Shown here: positions 3,381 through 59,921 of the stretch, piece by piece
Numbering within the stretch: the first letter of the stretch is position 1
Layout: every line of letters starts with the position of its first letter
Source: Eledone cirrhosa
Lineage: Eukaryota
Direction: 5' to 3'
Assembly: GCA_964016885.1 (NCBI GenBank)
Contig: OZ024743.1
Location: 119,102,001 to 119,166,000 of the forward strand
Length of the DNA stretch: 64,000 nt
Notes under the pieces: model-generated
Databases searched by the model: none
Seen by the model: the letters and a program-made list of their open reading frames with translations, nothing else
Told to the model about the DNA's origin: nothing
Position numbers and translations under genes: made by a program

Positions 3381-3584
3381 GGAACGAGTAGGACCCCGAC
3401 GGCTGAGCTCAAGCCGTTTCGACGGCTAATTCTGGACTAAATTCTGGACAGAAATAGCCGTCGAAACGGCTTGAGCTCAGCCGTCGGGGTCCTACTCGTT
3501 CCCATTACCCACTCTACTACCCTAAGTATTGAGTACTTTGGTGCGTTATGGTCCATCTGGTTCCTTACCACATTTCCTTCGTTA
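3381..3584 (+). mobile_element. Fold-back hammerhead-associated element family A (Penelope-like pLTR remnant) in (TA)n
   Basis: Inverted arms about 3381-3434/3449-3502; GAAA-CGGC-TTGAGCTCA-GCCG-TC (hammerhead 3' half); unique tail to 3584; TA tracts on both sides. Confidence 0.8.
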
Positions 3585-6319: not shown

Positions 6320-6321
<2 letters not shown>

Positions 6322-6436
6322 TTCTCCCGAATGAAACAGTTCTGTAGAAGCCATTTCTAGATTAAATTATTTATACACAACTATGTATTGAGTACCTTAC
6401 TTACTGTGGTTACCTCCGATTTAACCCGGGATAAAC
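6320..6436 (+). mobile_element. Family B element, 5' truncated, in (TA)n
   Basis: Matches 14913-15035 including the tail GTATTGAGTACCTTACTTACTGTGGTTACC. Confidence 0.8.
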
Positions 6437-6505: not shown

Positions 6506-6893
6506 GATATTAATAAATGGAAACTATATTTATAAAACCATATTTATTTCATTATACATATTTCAGGGATACCAAATTAAATTATGGTATGCCTTCATCA
6601 GACAAAATACAATATATAACAGTTTTGGATGGCTTCCAAAAATAATGGTTGCATTTTAAAAGGGTACGTCAAAGCTTATTTGTAAAACTGTTATATATTG
6701 TATTTTGTCTGATGAAGGCATACCATAAATTAATTTGGTATCCCTGAAATATGTATAATGAAATAAATATGGTTTCATAAATATAGTTTCCATTTATTAA
6801 TATCGTATATCTACTCCAAATACTTGTCGAGTGCTTTATATCAGTTATAAAAATATTTACTTGTTGTATCCCAACAATTTTAAATAGAACTTT

Positions 6894-7164: not shown

Positions 7165-7312
7165 AAAAAGTATGACCCCGACGGCAGAGCTCAAGCCATT
7201 TCGACGTCCAGAAATACCCGTCGAAACGGCTTGAGCTCTACCGTTGGGGTCATACTTTTTGCTATTTCCCACTCTACTACCCTACGTATTGAGTACCACA
7301 ATTCCTTCGTTA
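7163..7312 (+). mobile_element. Family A fold-back element with internal tail deletion
   Basis: Inverted arms around GTCGAAACGGCTTGAGCTC; tail deleted at a TAC microhomology; flanked by TA. Confidence 0.8.
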
Positions 7313-9013: not shown

Positions 9014-9786
9014 AAGTTAAATAAAAGTCAAATGATTAAAATTTAGCTTCGTTTATTACTGCTATATATATTTCAGTGACAGCCATCTTTGGCTGTGACC
9101 TCTTCAGGCAGTTTGAATTAGTATCGTATAGACAAGTACATATGTTGTTTAGGTGTATAATATTGTCAATACTCTGATATGCCCAGTTCCTTGTTGGGTT
9201 GTTAATTCACCGAGGAACTGGAGTCATATGAATTCAAAAAAACGAATTTCAGTGTCAAAGGTCCTCTTCTCCTCTCATTGGTCAGTTATTAGAACATTCC
9301 TCATTCTAAGTGTTGTTATTGTTGGAGTTAGCTTAAAAATTGATAAAATGGTAGAAGGGACAAGGTGTTAAAGGAACAAAATAACAAAAAAAGTGTCAAA
9401 CTTCCCATTGGTCAGTTCTGAGAGCATTCCTCAGTCAGAAGTCTATAGAATTCTTTCTGGGGTGAGGCTCCCTGTAGTGTTTTTGCCTGGTATTGTTCAG
9501 TACATTTGACCTCTACCATTATTTTGGTAGTGTTGTTGGTGTTGTGGTCAGCTTATATCTTGCTGCTGTTAACAATTTAGAAGTATCCAAAAAAAAAAAC
9601 CAAAAAAAACCCCACAAACTGTATACTTCTGAAGAGGTCACAGCCAAAGATGGCTGTCACTGAAATATATATAGCAGTAATAAACGAAGCTAAATGTTAA
9701 TCATTTGACTTTTATTTAACTATATTTTACACTACTCCGGAGTAACCAAACCAACCTGCGCACTTCGTCGAGTGCTCCAACCTGCA
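9007..9786. mobile_element. Family D element: about 100-bp inverted arms each carrying a hammerhead core, about 520-bp spacer, 3' tail
   Basis: Arms 9007-9107/9629-9729; CTGAAGA-GGTCACAGCCA-aaga-TGGCTGTCACT-GAAA-TATATA-TA-GCAGT. Confidence 0.8.
9057..9112 (-). ncRNA. Type I hammerhead ribozyme motif (complete)
   Basis: Minus strand reads ACTGC CTGAAGA [stem II] GAAA TATATA TA GCAGT; stem I ACTGC/GCAGT closes the core. Confidence 0.75.
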
Positions 9787-13639: not shown

Positions 13640-14202
13640 ATAACCAAAAGTTAAACAACGTTCATTGATTAATCAATGAATATAGTTTTACAATAGATTA
13701 GAAGCACTCACAGGGAAGTTTTCTGGAGTTATTAATATTAATTCAAAATATTAATAAATATAGACATTCATGTGATCAAATATATTTTATTATATATATT
13801 TCAGAGGTACTGTGCTATTTCTTCAGTACGTCCTCATCAGACATCAATTTATTTTATCTGATGAGGGCGTACTGAGGACACAGCACAGTACCTCTGAAAT
13901 ATATATAATTGTTTCTACATTTGGCACAAGGCCAGCAATCACCCAGTACATTACTGGTACTTTATTTTATCGACCCCGTAAGGATGAAAGGCAAAGTTAA
14001 CCTCGGCGGTATTTGAACTCAGACTGTAAAGGGACGTCTGAGTTCAAATCCCGCCGAGGTTAACTTTGCCTTTCATCAGATAAAATAAATTGATGTCTGA
14101 TGAGGACGTACTGAAGAAATAGCACAGTACCTCTGAAATATATATAATAAAATATATTTGATCACATGAATGTCTATATTTATTAATATTTTGAATTAAT
14201 AT
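13640..14202 (-). mobile_element. Family E fold-back hammerhead element enclosing a folded SINE
   Basis: 130-bp arms 13735-13864/14073-14202; cores at 13834-13840 (minus), 13858 and 14097 (plus); tail on the left with minus-strand ACTCC...GAGTGC. Confidence 0.8.
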
Positions 14203-14900: not shown

Positions 14901-15035
14901 GGGATTCCTGATGATTTCTCCCGAATGAAACAATTCTAGTACTGTAGAAGCCATTTCTATATTAAATATTTATTCTCTGCTATGTATTGAGTACCTTACT
15001 TACTGTGGTTACCCCCGATTGAACCCGGGATAAAC
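14901..15035 (+). mobile_element. Family B element (single arm) in (TA)n
   Basis: GATTC CTGATGA TTTC tccc GAAT GAAA CAA...CTG TA GAA, plus tail. Confidence 0.8.
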
Positions 15036-34746: not shown

Positions 34747-36322
34747 AATAATGCTCATTAGAAATGCAAAACCACCAAACTACCAAGTTTTTTTTACTCC
34801 TCTAAAAATGAGGTTTGAAAAAAAAAAAAATAATAATATGTTGGCGGAAAGAATTATCTTTGTTCCACAGCTTGATGCTTTGAAATTTGTTTTATCTCGC
34901 AGTGTTATGTGTTTGAATAAAACTTGCTGTATTTAGTTAGGTCTAACATCGTTCTGAGTTCAATTCTTGTTGAATAAATTTTGAGAAATCCGTACCAGGA
35001 TTATCTGTCAAGTTTTGAGGTTTGATTTAAACAACTATTCCAATAACTGAAAGGTGTGAGCATGTGACAACATCGCTTTTGTTAATTTGTGTTTGACACT
35101 TTTGTTGTGTTTGTCAGATGGAACCATATGATACCCATGAACTGAGTTTAAACAGCAATAACAGCAAAAAGAGATCGTTAAATGATTAGTTAAAAAATAA
35201 TCAGCAGAGCTGTAGTTGATTTCCCTGGTTTGCATTGCATCGTCTTTTGTGGCGTCTTCGTGTGTTACATGGTCTGTTCATTATGCAACTCAGTGAATTG
35301 ATGATGCGCACGCAGCATATTCTCATTCAAGCTGAGCACGTAGCCTATCTGAGTTTGAATATCGAACAAGGTGGTGAAAAGTCACGTCCTACTCGAGGTA
35401 CCTCTGATATGGTTATCTTAGGATAGTCTTACAGAACAGATCGAATATGGAGGAGTAAGTCTCGATAAAAATGATGATTGTTTCATCGTATGCAGTAGGT
35501 AATGCGACGATCATCAGTTTAATTAGATGACCGACGCCGTGATCAACAGTCGCTTCGCAGATAATCGATTAATTTGAAAATAGATTGGCACAACTGTTCC
35601 AGTCAGCGAAGAAATCTATGATTATGGAGGTGAGGCGAGCCACATATATTCTAGCCATTAGGGAAAGCAAAATGAATGTTTCATGGAGAAAGCAAAATGA
35701 AGTTTCACCTTCGATAGAGGGATGACTCAAGAAGAAGAAGAAGAAGAAGAAGAAGAAGAAGAAGAAGAAGAAGAATGTCCCATCTATTTAATACTTCCAA
35801 TTTAAAGAAGGAAGTAGAAAAACAACAGTGTTGTCAAACGTGTTTATATAAATCTGCTTGATAAAGGGTAACCTGGACCAAAGCACAAGATCAGGAATGG
35901 TAAGTCAATGAAGAGTCGGACGTTCAATTTTATCGCTCTGTATCTTTCGTCGATATACATTGGGGGAAAAAGACACAGAAGAACACGCATACACACATAC
36001 GTGTAAAAATCTACATGCACACATATGCACGCACTAAAGCACATAGTGGGATCACAAGGAATTGTTCAATACGAGGCTGTGATCGAAAAGATTTGCCCAA
36101 GATATCACGCTGTGGAATAGACCGAGAAGCATGGGGCTACGAAGCTAAATCCTTAAAACCACCATGACTACACCGAAGAACATTACTATAGAACATAAAG
36201 TATTTCCAAGCGGAAATCGATACCAAGTCACTGATTCGTTTCAAAGAAGCTGATTTCCTACTCTACGAAACTTACTACCTACCATCAATCAACACTACTC
36301 CCACTCTCTCTCACTCATTCAA

Positions 36323-39610: not shown

Positions 39611-39613
<3 letters not shown>

Positions 39614-39803
39614 TTAATATAGATGAGGTTCTACAGGACTAGAACTGTTTCATTCATTAGAAATCATCAGGATTCCTGATGATTTCTAATGAATGAAACA
39701 GTTCTAGTCCTGTAGAATCTCATCTATATTAAAACTGTTATACTCTGCTATGTATTGAGTACCTTACTTACTGTGGTTACCTCCGATTCAACCCGGAATA
39801 ACG
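39611..39803 (+). mobile_element. Family B fold-back element in (TA)n
   Basis: Arms 39611-39672/39674-39735, tail to 39803. Confidence 0.85.
39671..39719 (+). ncRNA. Type I hammerhead ribozyme motif
   Basis: GATTC CTGATGA T TTC taat GAA T GAAA CAG ttctagtc CTG TA GAATC; predicted GUA cleavage after 39714. Confidence 0.75.
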
Positions 39804-39822
39804 TATATATATATATATAAAT

Positions 39823-39863
<41 letters not shown>

Positions 39864-40424
39864 GATATATAAGAACAAAAGATGGTTAAAGGAGATCCAT
39901 GTATTTTATTATGCGCATTTCAAAAACAAACATCATCATGCAATAATATTTATACTACAATAAAACTCACCTCCTACATTATATATACATGTATATTTAT
40001 ATATACATAAATATAAAGGTGTGTGTGTGTGTGAGTGTATGTGTGCGTCTGTGTGTTTCTGTGCGCGTGACTTTATGTATGTAAAAGGTAAACAGAAATA
40101 ACAAAAACAACAAAACAAACGGCACAGTACATGGAAGGAATATATTAGCTGAACGCTTGAAATAGCAGGAATATAGTTTTCACGTTTCGGACATTAGTCT
40201 TTCATCAGAATACACAGTTAGAAATAGAAGATAAATAGAAAGTAAAGAGTGATAAGAGGAAGGAACGGGGAAAAATAAGAAAATAATTTGTGGAGCAACG
40301 AACCAAATACATATATCCATTTTATATATATGTATATGCGTGTGTCTGTGTTTGTATGTGTTTGTATGTGTATGTGGGCTTCTGTATGTATGCAGCATTT
40401 AAATATGTATGTATGTATGTTTAT

Positions 40425-41081: not shown

Positions 41082-41483
41082 ATGACCCCTTAGCCTTTGT
41101 CAAGGCAGAATTCTAGGAGAAGGAAAACTCTGATATAACACCTGCAACCCTGATGGTATCCAATGATGTTGACTTGTTCTTCTTTTTGGTAAATATCATC
41201 TTGGTTAAGAGAGTGGGACTGGCTTTGTGCAGTGCCTTTGCTCACTATAAAAGCTTCACGGCACAGGCATTGCTTTATATCTGGAGATCTCTCTGCACTT
41301 GTCGTCACATGGTACCATGGGCCCAGCACTATGTGTCAATAATTGTCACAAGTGTAGTGTTGGTACCAGAGTTTTCAAGTCGCTGGCTGGACTAAAAAGT
41401 CACACTCGCTCAGCGCATCGGTAGGGGTTCTCCTACATGGATGTAAAGTAGTGGCCGTACTCGAAAACGAGTTGGCAGCCACC
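41082..41483 (+). mobile_element. Non-coding RTE-like element with (TATG)n tail, 5' truncated
   Basis: Highly similar to the reverse complement of 57686-58088; contains GGAGAAGGAAAACTCTGA; flanked by (TATG)n. Confidence 0.75.
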
Positions 41484-41594
41484 ATGTATGTATGTATGTA
41501 TGTATGTATGTATGTATGTTTGTATGTATGTATGTATGTATGAATATGTATAGTTTAGTCAGGTGGCCAACACATAGTTTGTGCTTTCGGTCGG

Positions 41595-41639
<45 letters not shown>

Positions 41640-41643
<4 letters not shown>

Positions 41644-42086
41644 ATTAAATAAATGGAAACTATATTTATAAAACCATATTTATTTCATTATATATATTTC
41701 AGGGATATCATATTAACAATATGCTATGCCTTCCTCAGACAAAATACAATATAAACAGTTTTATAGATAAATAGATTCGACATACCGTAACAACATCGAC
41801 TTGCATTTGAAAAGGTTGATTCAACCTTTTCAAATGCAAGTCGATGTTGTTACGGTATGTCGAATCTATTTATCTATAAAACTGTTTATATTGTATTTTG
41901 TCTGAGGAAGGCATAGCATATTGTTAATATGATATCCCTGAAATATATATAATGAAATAAATATGGTTTTATAAATATAGTTTCCATTTATTTAATATTG
42001 TAAATATACTCCAAATATTTGTCGAGTGCTTTTATATCAGTTATAAATATTTACTAGTTGTAACCCAACAATTTAAATATAACTTT

Positions 42087-44990: not shown

Positions 44991-46087
44991 GGACGTTCAG
45001 GGATGGAACACATTTGGTGAAAGGTCTGCTCAATCAGCATTGACCTGTGGCATCACCAACGTTATAAATGATTAGGAAAAACCATCTGTAGAAACCGCAA
45101 TAATAATGAGGACAAATTTTAATAAATATATAATAATAATACCAACCGCCATCTTATGGATTTACAGTCATGCCATTTAGTAACTTAATGTACTAAATTA
45201 GTTGATTCCTAGATTGTCTTCATATGCCATTTTATTATAGAGCAGCACTAAAAGCGGAGAAACAAGTTGGTAGACTAAGAATTCAATTAGATAGCGTGAG
45301 CTAAATTCTATAGATATATTCTGCAGTACAGTATAGCATTGAAACAGACCGCCAGAGATTTATTAATCGAATTCTCTATGCGATTTATATGGGTGCTTAG
45401 AGTAGGATTAGAAGCAGTGATTCTATGGACAGTTAAAGATAGTACTCGGTCACTGATGAAATCGTCTGACAGAACTGAAATTAATGCGGGTGATTACATA
45501 TTTTCTTTCGACGGTGATATACAGTGTTGGATAAAATCCATAGATGTATTCTGTAGTAGGGAATGACGCCTAATAATTCAGGCATGACATTACTTTCAAC
45601 ATATCTTTCGAAATGTAGGTACTGAAAGACGTTTCTTGTCATCTTCATTAAAAACGTTCACGGTCTAATGACAGCATTTCGTCATCAATACATGTTTAAA
45701 TAACATGAATGTAAAAGGAATGCTTCATGCACTAAATACCAGTCATAATCTTCATAAACAACGTATTCAAAAGGCCTCATATGTCATCCCTTTTTGCTAT
45801 AGTTATAACAAACATTAATACAAAGTGATAATAAGAGTGTATAAAACAAAAAAATAAATTAAATAATGATAATTCTTCCTCCGCTTTTACTCATTGGATT
45901 GCATCGTTTAGCTTAATTGTTCTACATTCTCAGGCGTAATCTAACTCATTCATCTGAGTTGACTTCCCTTTTCATCCGTTTGAGATTGATGTCATAAGTT
46001 TCCTCTACAATTTGGACTTCATTCAATCTAGTATACTAGTATCATGTAAATATTTACATAATAATCAGTTTCAAAAATCGATTATCA

Positions 46088-46217: not shown

Positions 46218-46967
46218 TCAGATATTCAGAACGTATCGGAAGATTCTTGCTGTTCCCAGCAAGCATGCCTTTTGAAGTGTTCCAAAAAGCGGGGCTGAAC
46301 TAACTTTCTTTAACCATCCTTGGAAACTCTTTGAGATAGTACCTAGTGCGCCTATGACAATCGGGACCACTTTGACTTCGCAGTTCCAATTCCTTTTTAC
46401 CTCCCACTTTAAGTCCTGGTAGCGGTTAATTTTCTCCCTCTCCTTCTCTTGCACTCTCGTGTCGAATGGGCAGGCCACAACCACAATCAGGCACGATCTT
46501 TTTTCCTTGTCCAAAACCACCAGGTCAGGTCTATTGTGTTCCAGTTTCTTGTCCGTCTGTATCCTAAAATCCCACAGCACCTGATCGTTTTCTATCACCG
46601 ACTCTGGCTTATGCTCATACCACTTCTCAGAATGTGGTAAATTGTTTACTTTGCATAGGTGCCAGTGGATCACCCTGCCCATCACATCATGTCCCCAGCC
46701 TTTATAGTGAGTCTGGGCTAGGTGTTTACACTCGGATACAATGTGAGCCACAGTCTCCTCTCTCTCTCCACAGATCCTACACAGTGGGCTAGCCTCCTCC
46801 TTGTAAATATTGTGTTTCAGCCACTTCGTTTTGAGGGCCTGCTCTTGCGCAGCCATTAGCATTCCTTCTGTAGCCTTTTTAAGGTCTCCTCTTTTCAACC
46901 AGTTCCATGTCTGTGCATGTCTGAATTCAGTTTTCTCAAAGAAGGTATTATGAAGGGATTTTTTCAT
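46218..46967 (-). pseudogene. CCHC zinc knuckle + RLE endonuclease of the LINE
   Basis: CRICGEREETVAHIVSEC; NRPDLVVLDK; EKINRYQDL; VVPIVIGALG; some conserved residues are altered (GHD for RHD, VVACP for DVACP). Confidence 0.88.
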
Positions 46968-48322
46968 GAAAGTTGCTCTTTCTCCTTGTTTTTATTTCCT
47001 CCCTGGACATCCCCTGGTCTATTGTCCTCTCCTTCAGTACAATTCTGAGCATTGGCTCCCTACTATCAGTCACGTATTTGTGTAGGTTGTTTTTCTCCAT
47101 CTGAACACAGTCCTCTATGCTGATAAGACCTCTTCCACCTTCAGATCTTCTTAAGTAGAGTCTATCGACATCACTCCTCTTGTGGAACATATTGTAGATA
47201 GTCAATAGCTTCATAGTTTTCCTATGCATTTCTTTTTGTTCAGCAATATTCCATTTCAGAATTCCCGCACTGTACCTAATAATAGACACAGCTCGGGAAT
47301 TTACTGCACTTATGGCATTCCTACTGTTCAGATGCGATTTTAATACGCTCCTTACTCTCCGAATGTATTCGGATCTTATCAATTCCTTCATTTTTTTGTT
47401 CTTGATGTCATCTGCCTCCAGAACACCTAAATATTTGTATCCTTCTTCAGTGTCAATTTCCTTTATCATCTCACCTGTTGGTATCTGGATTCCGTTGCTT
47501 CTGCTCAATTTACACCTCTTCATCACTAGGACTCCACACTTGTTAATACGAAATTGCATACATATATCATTGCTGAAAATACGGACAGTGTCAACAAGCA
47601 CATCCAACTCCTTCTCACTCTTCCCGAAGAGCTTAAGATCGTCCATGAAGAGGAGGTGATTGATGGTAAGCTCTCCCTTTCCCAACTTGTATCCTGCTCT
47701 CACCTTTCGCAGTATAATGGCCAGGGGAATCAGGGCAAGGACAAACAACAGAGGGGACAAACTATCTCCCTGGAAGATACCTCTCTTGATCTTCACGCTT
47801 CCCAAGGATCCTCCACCCGATGTTAACTCTGTTTTCCAAGACTTCATACTTTTGCTCAACAACTGTCTGATGTTATCTGCCACCTTGAAGATCTCTAGGC
47901 TTTTGGTGATCCAAGAATGAGGCACCATGTCAAATGCCTTTTTGTAGTCTATCCATCCCATGGCAAGACCAGTGTGTTTCCTCTTGCAATTCCTCATTAC
48001 CATCTTATCAATAAGTAATTGGTCCTTTGTACCACGGGACTTCTTTCCACATCCTTTCTGTTCGTCCGGTAACAAGTTGTTTATGTGGAGATGATGGTAG
48101 ATTTCCCCGGACATTAACAGTTAACAGTTTCCACATTACGGACAGACATGTGATAGGTCTATAGTTGGTAACATCATTACCCTTGATTCGGTCTTTCATT
48201 ACCAGAACTGTGGTACCTTTTGTCAACCACTCTGGTACCTCACCTGACATCAAGCAGTCATTGAACATGGTTGTCAGTTTCGGGTGGAGGGATGTTATAT
48301 TTTTAATCCAATACCCCTGCAC
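46948..48322 (-). pseudogene. Reverse transcriptase domain of the R4/Dong-type LINE
   Basis: [64 protein letters not shown]. Confidence 0.92.
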
Positions 48323-49811
48323 ACCCTCTGGTTGGTTAGTTTTTTGGCCTGCCCCTTAAGAGTTTCAACTGTGATACTCAAATCAGTTTGTTGGTGTACC
48401 TGTTCACTAATCTCCTTTTGTACTGTCTCAATCCACGCTGCCTGATCATTATGTTTAACATCCTGCTCCCATATTCCTCTCCAGGATGTCTTAGTCTGTT
48501 CCGCCTTAGGGATCAAGTCGTTGCCTCTTTCTTTCCCTTCAAGCTGTCCAAACAACATCTTCTGGTTGTTGTCAAACATGCGGTTCTGTCTATACTGACT
48601 CTGCCCTCGTATCGCCTAATCTTTGCACTCTTTGCTACAATGCGTTGCTTCAGTTCCTCTATGATAATATTTAGCTTTTTCTTCCTAGTTTTGTACTTTA
48701 TTTCCAGTCTATTTTTAGTGTCTATGTTTTGTAGTGTCCCATTAGGTAGGGACTCAAGCTTTCCAATGTCATTTCTCATTTCCCTGATTTGACCATTCAG
48801 TCATTTCTTCCACTAAGGTTCTTATCTTTCTTGTTTGTTGTTTCCTCTCGCTTTTATGCCAAGTAATTTCCTCACCGCATTTGCTGTTGCTTTGAGGATA
48901 TTGTTGCACTGGTGAAGGTTCCTCGCCTCAAGGTATGGGATGACTTTGTTTACATTAGCTGTTGTTTCTTTTAACTTTTTCCTGTCTACAAATCTTAGGT
49001 TCATAGGTTTCCCACTATCATTGTTCATTTCATCTACCACTAAGTTTAGGATATCAACCAAATCTTGTCCTAGCCCGTCAGCATTCATTTCCTCAATGGC
49101 CGTATCTTTGTTCCAGGTATTATTTATTTCAGCATTCAGATCATTGTCTGCGTTTTGTTCATCTAATTTAAATAGACCAATCTCGTTCCAGATGTTATGC
49201 ATCCGATTATTATTATTATGAGCCTCTTGACTCTTCAAATGAAGCAGAAATTATCTTCATAAAATGAAAATACGACAATGCTCTGTACAAAGTATATAAA
49301 ATTATTTATTTTCTCTACAGAAGTATAACAATATACATTGTTCGAATTTGCGTCCCTAAGTCTACGAAAGAAAGTTTAATAGCCCAGATAAGAAATGTCA
49401 TAAACCCCTTCATGCCTTTTTACTAATTTACTTCAGATCATAATATACGTTGAGATTGAAATAGGACTGACCTCGTCAGTAAGGTCATAGACTCACCTGT
49501 CTAACTGAGTAAACTTTTCAACCGATAAGTGATTTCATGTAATGATAATATGACGTCGAACATTTTCAATGCACAATTAAAATAGAGAAGGTAAAGATGT
49601 GGATTAGAGTTTATATTTTAACAATAGAGATGCCAGAATTCTTTTTTTATTTTTTAGTTGGCAGGAACCTTTTTTTCTAAACATAGCTTAGATATAACCA
49701 TACGGTATGTAATCAGTCGATTAATATATATACACCACAACAAATAATTCATTTCTTAGAAGTTATATTTAATGCGCGCTCAAACACACACTCATTTACA
49801 TATATATATAA

Positions 49812-52589: not shown

Positions 52590-52638
<49 letters not shown>

Positions 52639-52640
<2 letters not shown>

Positions 52641-52826
52641 TGAGATTCTACAGGACTAGAACTGTTTCATTCATTAGAAATCATCAGGAATCTGATTCCT
52701 GATGATTTCTAATGAATGAAACAGTTCTAGTCCTGTAGAATCTCATCTATATTAAAATTTTTATACTCTGCTATGTATTGAGTACCTTACTTACTGTGGT
52801 TACCTCCGACTCAACCCGGAATAACG
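52639..52826 (+). mobile_element. Family B fold-back element with complete hammerhead motifs on both strands
   Basis: Plus: GATTC(52694) CTGATGA ... GAAA(52718) CAG..CTG TA GAATC; exact inverse at 52644-52692. Confidence 0.88.
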
Positions 52827-53602
52827 TATATATATATATATATATTCACACGCTTGACAATTGAATACATATATATGTAAAAGGGCGAATATATATAATT
52901 ATCCAGAAATGATTTTCTACACTTAGATAAACACAAAATACAATCCCTTCTACAAAACATATGTTTAATAATCATGGAAGGATGAACACTAAATACATTT
53001 CGACACAGTAAAACAAGAGAAAAATAGTAGAATTGAGGAAATGCACACTTGAATGAAAAGAATGAGAGATAGAAATAAATAGATCGATCGATAGATAGAT
53101 AGATAGAGGGAGAAAGGCATAGGGAGAGAGAGAAATAGAGAAGAGAGAGAGACCATCATCAATATTTTGAATAATAGTTATTTAGCGAGTGGGTAATTTT
53201 CTAAAACAGGATGTCTTTAACTCCGATGGCAAAACAAAGGAAAATAAATAGTGGTGACAATAAAATATAAAAAAAAAAGTTTACATAAACAAAAAAATTA
53301 ACAAAAAAAAAAGAATATAGCGAAATGCGGGTAGGAGGGCCTACAATAAGCAAAAAAAAATGAAAATATAAAAAAAAAACAAGTAGAGGAAAGAAAGAAG
53401 TGAATGAGGAATGACACAATAGAAGATGTCAAGATTCGCTTATCAATACACCTTCACGGAAACAACTTTTCAAGCAATAACAAATCTCTTTGAATTAAGT
53501 GTAAGAAAAAAGCAAGCAGTAGACAGCTGTGGCAGTAGTAATAGCTGTTTGGCTATGGCAGTAGAGGAACAGTAGAAGCAGTAGCCATAGCAGTAGTAGA
53601 TA

Positions 53603-57290: not shown

Positions 57291-57685
57291 CATATACGTA
57301 TATATCGTTGCCTGAATGGGGCTGTACTCGGAGTTACCCAAAGCAAACTGTCACACTCTCCAATGACTGACGTATAGACACGCACACAAGATGCCACACC
57401 CATATATGTGTACATAAATGTATGCATGCATACATTTATACTTAAATATGTACATGCATACATGTTTCTGCAATCTTGGATAATCCTCTAACGAGTGAAA
57501 TCTTAATTTTTTTTGTTTTTTTAAGCATCAAAATTATGATTAAATTTGAGTTCGTAAATATCAAAAACCAACTTGTATATTTCGTAATATATTTCTAAGA
57601 GGAATAAACTGCACACACACATACATACATACATACATACATACATACATACATACATACATACATACATACATACATACATACA

Positions 57686-58264
57686 TGGTGGCTGCCAACT
57701 CGTTTTCGAGTACGGCCACTACATTATATCCATGTAGGAGAACCCCTACCGATGCGCTGAACGAATGTGACTTTTTAATCCAGCCAGCGACTTGAAAACT
57801 CTGGTACAAACACTACACTTGTGACAATTATTGACGCATAGTGCTGGGCCCATGGTACCATGTGACGACAAGTGCAGAGAGATCTCCAGATATAAAGAAA
57901 TGCCTGTGCCGTGAAGCTTTTATAGTGAGCAAAGGCCCTGCACAAAGCCAGTCCCACTCTCTTAACCAAGATGATATTTCCCAAAAAGAAGAACAAGTCA
58001 ACATCATTGGATACCATCAGGGTTGCTGGTGTTATATCAGAGTTTTCCTTCTCCTATAATTCTGCCTTGACAAAGGCTAAGGGGTCATCTCTCCCGGTGA
58101 TTTTGGATGACCATTGACTCTTAAGAGCTCCTTTGCCCTTTGTTTTTAGTCCTGCAGGATGTCCAAAGTCACCCTCCTCACCAAGAAACCTTGGTGGGGT
58201 TGCCAGTTTAGTCGCCAACGACCCGACCATGAGAGAGGTCAGGTCGTTGGCGACTAAACTTCCC
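57686..58264 (-). mobile_element. Non-coding RTE-like element, near full length, between (CATA)n tracts
   Basis: Inverse of 41082-41483 plus about 175 bp more of the 5' region; terminal hairpin 58205-58260. Confidence 0.75.
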
Positions 58265-59620: not shown

Positions 59621-59663
59621 TCGAAACGGCCGGAGCTCAGCCGTCGGGGTCCTGACTCTTTTC

Positions 59664-59695: not shown

Positions 59696-59725
59696 AAATA
59701 AAATAAAATAAAATATATATATATA

Positions 59726-59921
59726 GATGAGATTCTACAGGACTAGAACTGTTTCATTCTTTAGAAATCATCAGGAAGCCTGATAATTCCTGATGATTTC
59801 TAAAGAATCAAACAGTTCTAGTCCTGTAGAATCTCATCTATATTAACACTTTTATACTCTGCAATGTATTGAGTACCTTACTTACTGTGGTTACCTCCGA
59901 TTCAACCCGGAATAACGTAAC

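Follow-up and report, generated by a model that had tools for sequence, protein, structure and literature searches.

The window, a stretch of 64,000 nt from the TA-repeat-rich, 3.0 Gb genome of Eledone cirrhosa, carries at 52639..52826 a short inverted repeat with a hammerhead motif on either strand. This raises the question of whether the locus is a discrete mini-element with a fixed 5' boundary, as the first-pass annotation had proposed, or a piece of something larger, and how its two halves came to lie head-to-head. The locus consists of two head-to-head copies (55 + 133 nt) of the start of a Penelope-type element, inside a TA repeat. It is real, and an ordinary product of insertion by a new member (called family B here) of a known class of elements.

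Layout of the locus and its hammerhead motif

Positions are numbered from the G of GATTC at window position 52694 (+1); the preceding base of the parent element, an A, is -1, and the C before it is -2. The forward arm (52694..52826, + strand) spans +1 to +133, comprises the 5' leader/pLTR end and the tail of a Hydra-type Penelope-like element (PLE), and has neither promoter nor ORF. The inverted arm (52639..52693, - strand) is tail-less and extends from -1, the putative RNA start, to +54. (TA)n target tracts adjoin the locus on the left (52591..52638), where the tract overlaps the TATAT end (+55..+59) of the inverted arm, and on the right (52827..52845). The one-sided tail (about +68 to +133; 52761..52826, + strand) is missing from the inverted arm and continues in frame into the ORF in full-length copies. 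The centre of the palindrome is a single nucleotide (52693), a T that is the complement of -1. The locus had been described as a unit of about 135 nt duplicated back-to-back; only the part from -1 to +54, up to the TA tract, is mirrored, and the 3' ~65 nt are present on a single arm.

The motif GATTC CTGATGA T TTC taat GAA T GAAA CAG ttctagtc CTG TA GAATC lies on both strands, as first annotated: at 52694-52742 (+), with a predicted cut after the GUA at 52737, and at 52692-52644 (-), with a predicted cut after 52649. It has a type I topology with the core CUGANGA, GAAA and NUH and three helices, and its self-cleavage is putative. Helix I, of 5-6 bp, begins at the putative RNA start, and stem III carries a palindromic CTAG loop. 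Among 17 distinct family B copies, partly picked by their core, the core was invariant and 92.8% of the cells were paired. Two pairs of helix I change on both sides (A-U to C-G and A-U to G-C). In the same copies stem II was invariant and stem III showed no compensatory change, so neither adds support.

The first pair of stem II is U-U in 249 of 250 family B matches (loci including duplicates), as had been noted for the window copy, and takes the place of the G10.1-C11.1 pair by which type I hammerheads are recognised. The U10.1-U11.1 pair is a described hammerhead variant that is compatible with cleavage (PMC3088659). With duplicates counted, it was found in four repeat families of this genome (family B, 249/250; family X, 14/15; a 310-nt array, 21/21; another family, 28/29), G-C being the usual pair. 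Family B resembles the minimal type I hammerheads of PLEs (Cervera and de la Peña 2014, PMC4209133) in its palindromic loop III, which suits dimers, in closely spaced motifs on opposite strands and in the predominance of solo copies. It differs from the hammerheads described there by the U10.1-U11.1 pair in place of a conserved G-C, a stem III of 3-4 bp and a weak predicted monomer fold.

Rfam gave no gathering-level match for the locus, and its hammerhead match was at chance level (E = 1). Matches to miRNA families in the same database were rejected, as they reflect the hairpin only, and a sequence search of the PDB returned nothing meaningful. Folding predictions yielded z = -21 for the palindrome and z = +0.7 for the monomer hammerhead. 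That a ribozyme is encoded on both strands is true of the letters alone: the short copies have no promoter, and a read-through RNA across the palindrome is predicted to form a 53-bp hairpin (-90.7 kcal/mol), with which the ribozyme fold is incompatible. Within 52694-52780, before the first ATG of the ORF, there are three very short upstream reading frames, two of which precede the predicted cut.

The hammerhead core pattern occurs 27 times in the window, compared with 2.7 ± 1.6 times in shuffles. All other copies listed in the first-pass annotation were recovered, namely a second head-to-head family B insertion (39612..39807, fold at 39673), a third one with a 9-nt spacer (59708..59919) and a tailed single-arm copy of an older subfamily (14903..15033, + strand). 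The motif of the third insertion is intact on the - arm only, the core on the + arm being changed from GAAA to CAAA. A fifth copy, additional to those listed, is single-armed, tailed and truncated within the hammerhead (6320..6434, + strand). Core matches of other families are located at 6561-6749, 9071-9665, 13799-14138, 35481-35517, 40178-40208, 41628-42012 and 45453-45480; several are inverted pairs, and the one at 41628-42012 is a palindrome with 187-bp arms. The window also features a broken ORF at 46218-49250 (- strand), labelled by inspection as a LINE-type RT with a C-terminal restriction-like endonuclease motif, and a 464-nt repeat pair in opposite orientation (41082-41545 and 57625-58088, 97% identity).

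The parent Penelope-like element

Rather than a stand-alone mini-element, family B represents the 5' leader and the terminal repeat of an autonomous PLE with Hydra-clade motifs. The proposed discrete unit dissolves in longer copies, in which a promoter-like region with CCAAT and TATA motifs adjoins the sequence on the upstream side, and on the downstream side a single open frame leads on into an RT-endonuclease ORF. Work on the anole element (PMC11167929) had pointed to an ORF behind the tail. Tail ends without a following TA were found at 75 places genome-wide, and many of the 30 that were fetched run in one frame into the RT ORF. The whole unit of about 3.5 kb is composed of B, an ORF of about 710 codons, a 3' UTR with a TG/TA tract, the promoter region, B and TA (L229, L234, L244, L246). 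Direct terminal repeats (pLTRs) are present in L234 (B at 863 and 4363 of the oriented locus) and L246; L229 and L244 show the upstream tail and the downstream B. All full-length copies that were read carry breaks.

Some family B copies extend upstream through about 400 nt of shared sequence, followed by the TG/TA tract. Above -1 they feature C-rich boxes, a CCAAT motif, present in 35 of 43 long-class arms, and, about 30 nt upstream, a TATA-like box that is visible in most long arms. An origin of the TAAT loop variant from a short-only master was rejected, since 15 of 16 long-class arms with this loop have the CCAAT motif and two enter the ORF. PLE ORFs upstream of long B copies (L111, L114/L139, L117) were also considered as parents and discarded; they either belong to other families, which have ends of their own, or are found on the opposite strand in the TA/TG tract. 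At L139:3792-8544, an inverted pair formed by a degenerate RT-GIY-YIG element that belongs to another PLE type (family X) is located in the TG/TA tract of a long family B insertion. PLE families are in this way nested within one another's repeats.

By inspection, the family B ORF contains the motifs YRDD and IVY...YIG, together with RWR, SDKT, the linker CNCLNKEAC (CxCX5C), CDLC (CxxC) and CMH (CxH). The RT precedes a C-terminal GIY-YIG-type core, and a CCHH motif is absent. Pfam matches to the ORF were weak (GIY-YIG, E = 0.099; no RT match). Homologues of the ORF number 280, are mostly about 700 aa long and carry PF00078/PF26215. Among the 120 of these that were listed, YRDD is present in 120, DKT in 101, CxCX5C in 101 and RW[K/R] in 109; at the latter position 79 have RWK, 30 have RWR, as does family B, and 11 have neither. 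DKT, the CxCX5C linker, the lack of CCHH, the CxxC/CxH motifs and the (TA)n target agree with the definition of the Hydra clade and RWR instead of RWK departs from it, so that the motifs would place the element in this clade.

Family B shares with the Hydra-clade EN+ PLEs described by Craig et al. (2021, PMC8557442) a single ORF of about 710 codons with RT and C-terminal GIY-YIG-type domain, DKT, the CxCX5C linker, the absence of CCHH, and CxxC and CxH near the end. The hammerhead in the terminal repeat, the (TA)n target, the inverted 5'-truncated copy and the one-sided tail are also common to both. Compared to the elements described there, family B has RWR instead of RWK and a tail of about 65 nt rather than 30-40 nt. 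It further differs in its unit of about 3.5 kb, the long TG/TA tract in the 3' UTR and its approximately 1e5 insertions, most of which are leader-only. Family B may already be contained in the supplementary files of that study.

Arm ends and junctions across the genome

An unselected sample of 113 ten-kb stretches was taken at arbitrary round coordinates, excluding the window along with the four stretches next to it and one stretch that had been targeted. It contained 57 family B arms in about 40 insertions (38-40, as two pairs were not joined by the script). This density of about 35 insertions per Mb corresponds to an estimated 100,000 insertions in the genome, all subfamilies included. The insertions are dispersed, either single or head-to-head, with only occasional short tandems (L163, L241).

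The 3' ends of the 57 arms fall into two classes, with 27 tailed arms, 29 tail-less arms and one other, and each of the 17 head-to-head pairs detected in the sample combines a tailed with a tail-less arm, the tail pattern known from PLEs (PMC8557442, PMC11167929). The 5' ends are located at -9..+12 in 34 arms, at +13..+40 in 12, beyond +50 in 3 and at or above -10 in 8, one of which (L081) probably reflects an alignment that ran too far; in diverged copies the ends are accurate only to within a few bases. No 5' end among the 57 arms falls at +41..+50, around the cleavage site (+44/+45). The 5' ends cluster about 30 nt below the TATA-like box. The fixed 5' boundary of the first-pass annotation is real as a non-random cluster, which the putative capped RNA start explains better, and fails as a limit, as 6,873 arms genome-wide read into the upstream template. 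The motif of this long class shows a strand excess (4,784 forward, 2,089 reverse), and in loci L302 and L303 the B start is embedded in a different repeat; an array may account for both.

Junctions between the arms were of 28 kinds among 50 pairs, and 19 were distinct among the 25 pairs that had not been found via the junction of this locus, many of which came from a search for the G class. One junction recurs in 12 of the 50 pairs, 11 of them from a search biased towards it. As junctions differ from copy to copy, the hairpin is remade at each insertion. The arms of a pair agree in their loop II variant, no mixed TAAT/TAAA pair being present among 48 pairs.

From the two classes of 3' end and the lack of ends at the cleavage site we infer initiation at two internal sites on an uncleaved template. 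The fixed end of the tail-less arms favours two starts over a single folded-back cDNA; the agreement between arms does not decide between them.

The extra G and the origin of the head-to-head copies

Exact genome-wide counts for the young subfamily gave 1,868 arms with a G at -2 and 416 with A or T, while 6,873 continue with the template CC. About half of the 30 G-class loci that were read can derive the G from the partner arm, and the raw ratio of 1,868 to 416 therefore overstates the extra G. The test was made on single arms preceded by six A/T bases, the template base at -2 being C. A hand count of the first 100 of the 294 arms listed yielded G in 49, T in 21, the template C in 19 and A in 11; after ATATAT, G was found in 21 of 35 arms of this set. 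At an internal control position, before +7, G was found in 1 of the first 100 of 291 arms listed (Fisher p = 4e-17 against 49/100). The extra G is position-specific, and the window copy at 52639..52826 has none. An extra 5' G in full-length L1 insertions has been read as a copy of the cap (PMC11702581).

The promoter motifs together with the extra G point to an RNA start site and a cap. We assign a probability of roughly 0.7 to the reading that the element's own enzyme makes cDNA from capped, uncleaved RNA, beginning at two internal starts and running off at the cap, and thereby leaves head-to-head leader copies in a TA repeat. Pol II would start at the A just before GATTC, which would place the hammerhead at the first base of the RNA. 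The RT-endonuclease would then cut (TA)n, and the two target ends would prime cDNA within the leader, at about +55..+68 and about +133. Both cDNAs would reach or approach the cap, which would often be copied as an extra base, and the cDNA ends would be joined head-to-head with a few bases lost or gained. The product lacks a promoter and would probably give rise to no further copies. The RNA may come from full-length elements or from partial copies with a promoter, of which there are thousands.

The lizard element PAc (Poseidon of Anolis carolinensis; Frangieh et al. 2024, PMC11167929) initiates internally at two sites and on both target strands in vitro, where it uses uncleaved RNA. Two internal RT starts that bracket the tail, an AT-rich target and an uncleaved RNA template would be shared by PAc and family B. 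The PAc ORF starts within its hammerhead, whereas the first in-frame ATG of family B is located about 180 nt downstream of the putative RNA start; a long stem III is a further listed difference between the two. The accessible text on PAc reports no cap-derived base in genomic copies. The non-templated G at the RNA start is shared with full-length L1 (PMC11702581). L1 copies its whole RNA from the 3' end, in contrast to family B, in which apparently only the first 55-133 nt are copied from internal starts.

An unlikely explanation, although it accepts the same PLE origin, takes the short copies as 5'-truncated cDNAs from the 3' terminal repeat of full-length RNA, with the RT stalling or folding back just after helix I and the G stemming from fold-back onto the copied 3' strand of this helix. 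Helix I and the boundary begin at the same base, and fold-back predicts a G and then T and A upstream, as in ATATATG-AGATTCC; locus L249 is joined through exactly this microhomology. The literature also takes such arms as 5'-truncated copies (PMC8557442). As fold-back onto the copied helix I would give a G in young family B as well, two other families were tested. Family A shares the arrangement of palindrome and tail, possesses a TATA-like box and contains no helix partner sequence by which fold-back could explain a G. It nevertheless carries the same G: among the first 100 of 565 arms listed, G was found in 45, C in 32 and A in 23 (the template base T was outside the query), and after ATATAT in 21 of 29 (p = 3e-5 against one third). 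Some of the many C in family A may be a template variant. Family A is a very common PLE-like repeat (window 3392-3415, 7170-7197, 59625-59660 and others) with GAAAC and GTC; as CTGANGA is missing from its sequence, its ribozyme would be non-canonical or absent.

Family X bears on fold-back in both directions. The fold is located about 30 nt downstream of the TATA box and about 45 nt before the hammerhead of this family, a position that links it to the start site instead of the ribozyme. On the other side, family X has no clear G: at the first position tried it was found in 1 of 100 arms, and two bases further up G and C were counted 6 and 2 times after ATATAT and 1 and 7 times after TATATA. 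A stall after helix I is further opposed by the thousands of family B arms that read through the boundary site.

Very unlikely is a reading along the lines of the first-pass annotation, by which a self-propagating, non-autonomous mini-element or retrozyme would be transcribed as the 135-nt unit or the palindrome, cleaved by its ribozyme, perhaps circularised, and reinserted. The very high copy number and the one recurring junction (12/50 pairs, 11 from the biased search) would suit it, and non-autonomous PLE derivatives and monomeric retrozymes have been described (PMC8557442; bioRxiv 10.64898/2026.07.22.740005). Junctions are mostly unique, though, with 0 of 57 arms having a 5' end at the cleavage site, and copies are dispersed rather than tandem. 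Both loop variants occur as promoter-bearing and ORF-linked copies, and the 53-bp hairpin of a read-through RNA also argues against such a life cycle. Like the non-LTR retrozymes (Li et al. 2026, bioRxiv 10.64898/2026.07.22.740005), family B copies are short, protein-less, hammerhead-bearing and related to PLE terminal repeats. They differ from the retrozymes described there in being dispersed and head-to-head, without the tandem units that define that group. Separately, tandem 310-nt units at L239:5900-7000 and L208:4030-7100 each contain a minimal hammerhead with a palindromic ACGCGT stem III, the same U-U pair as family B and nearly the same stem II. Judged by its sequence, this array is a candidate for a true non-LTR retrozyme.

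A splice acceptor at the boundary (T-rich tract, CAG/ATTCC), with spliced RNA or a splicing intermediate as template, is a long shot. Upstream of the boundary the sequence is rich in T and has CAG as its last bases, and the intron of the Penelope element of D. virilis ends at the 5' end of helix I (PMC4209133). However, no upstream exon is common to the junctions, the AG itself is often kept in the arms together with the extra G, and a TATA-like box is present about 30 nt upstream in families B, A and X. Foldback or MITE-like elements at the DNA level, and likewise artefacts of assembly at TA repeats, would fit perfect palindromes that adjoin simple repeats and are negligible in view of the unequal arms, the linked RT ORF, the varied junctions and contigs from public runs (possibly from the assembly's own sample; none spans the whole locus) that show strand-switching joints and the upstream continuation. 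Among the public sequencing runs listed for the sequence there was no RNA run, which speaks neither for nor against any of these readings.

Several parts of the preferred reading, run-off of internally primed cDNAs at the cap, have precedents. The inverted copy, the one-sided tail and the (TA)n bias of PLEs have been described (PMC8557442; PMC3846280), as have hammerheads on opposite strands of PLE remnants (PMC4209133), a start site within the pLTR (PMC2377424) and retrozymes as PLE derivatives (bioRxiv 10.64898/2026.07.22.740005). No report of a cap-derived base or of cap run-off products in PLEs was found among the titles and first parts of abstracts of mainly open-access papers. The present analysis adds a genomic readout on how PLEs make inverted ends and tails, and on what the PLE ribozyme does.

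Should the extra G be the cap, the capped, uncleaved 5' leader would have served as template and both arms would be cDNAs that extend to the RNA start. The 'solo' PLE ends would then be a distinct by-product rather than the result of random truncation. The in vitro result for the lizard element would be extended to tens of thousands of natural insertions, and PLE start sites could be mapped from genome sequence alone.

On balance, we lean towards the view that most short PLE stumps in this genome are 'strong-stop'-like products, with a start inside the leader, priming by both cut strands, copying of the cap and head-to-head joining, and not truncated long cDNAs. If this is true, PLE start sites are recorded in tens of thousands of junctions, which also give an in vivo sign that template preparation does not involve the ribozyme located at the RNA's first base. 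With helix I starting at the putative first base, a ribozyme cut would take away the cap together with two tiny reading frames, which may point to control of translation or RNA fate, rather than template processing, as the role of the ribozyme.
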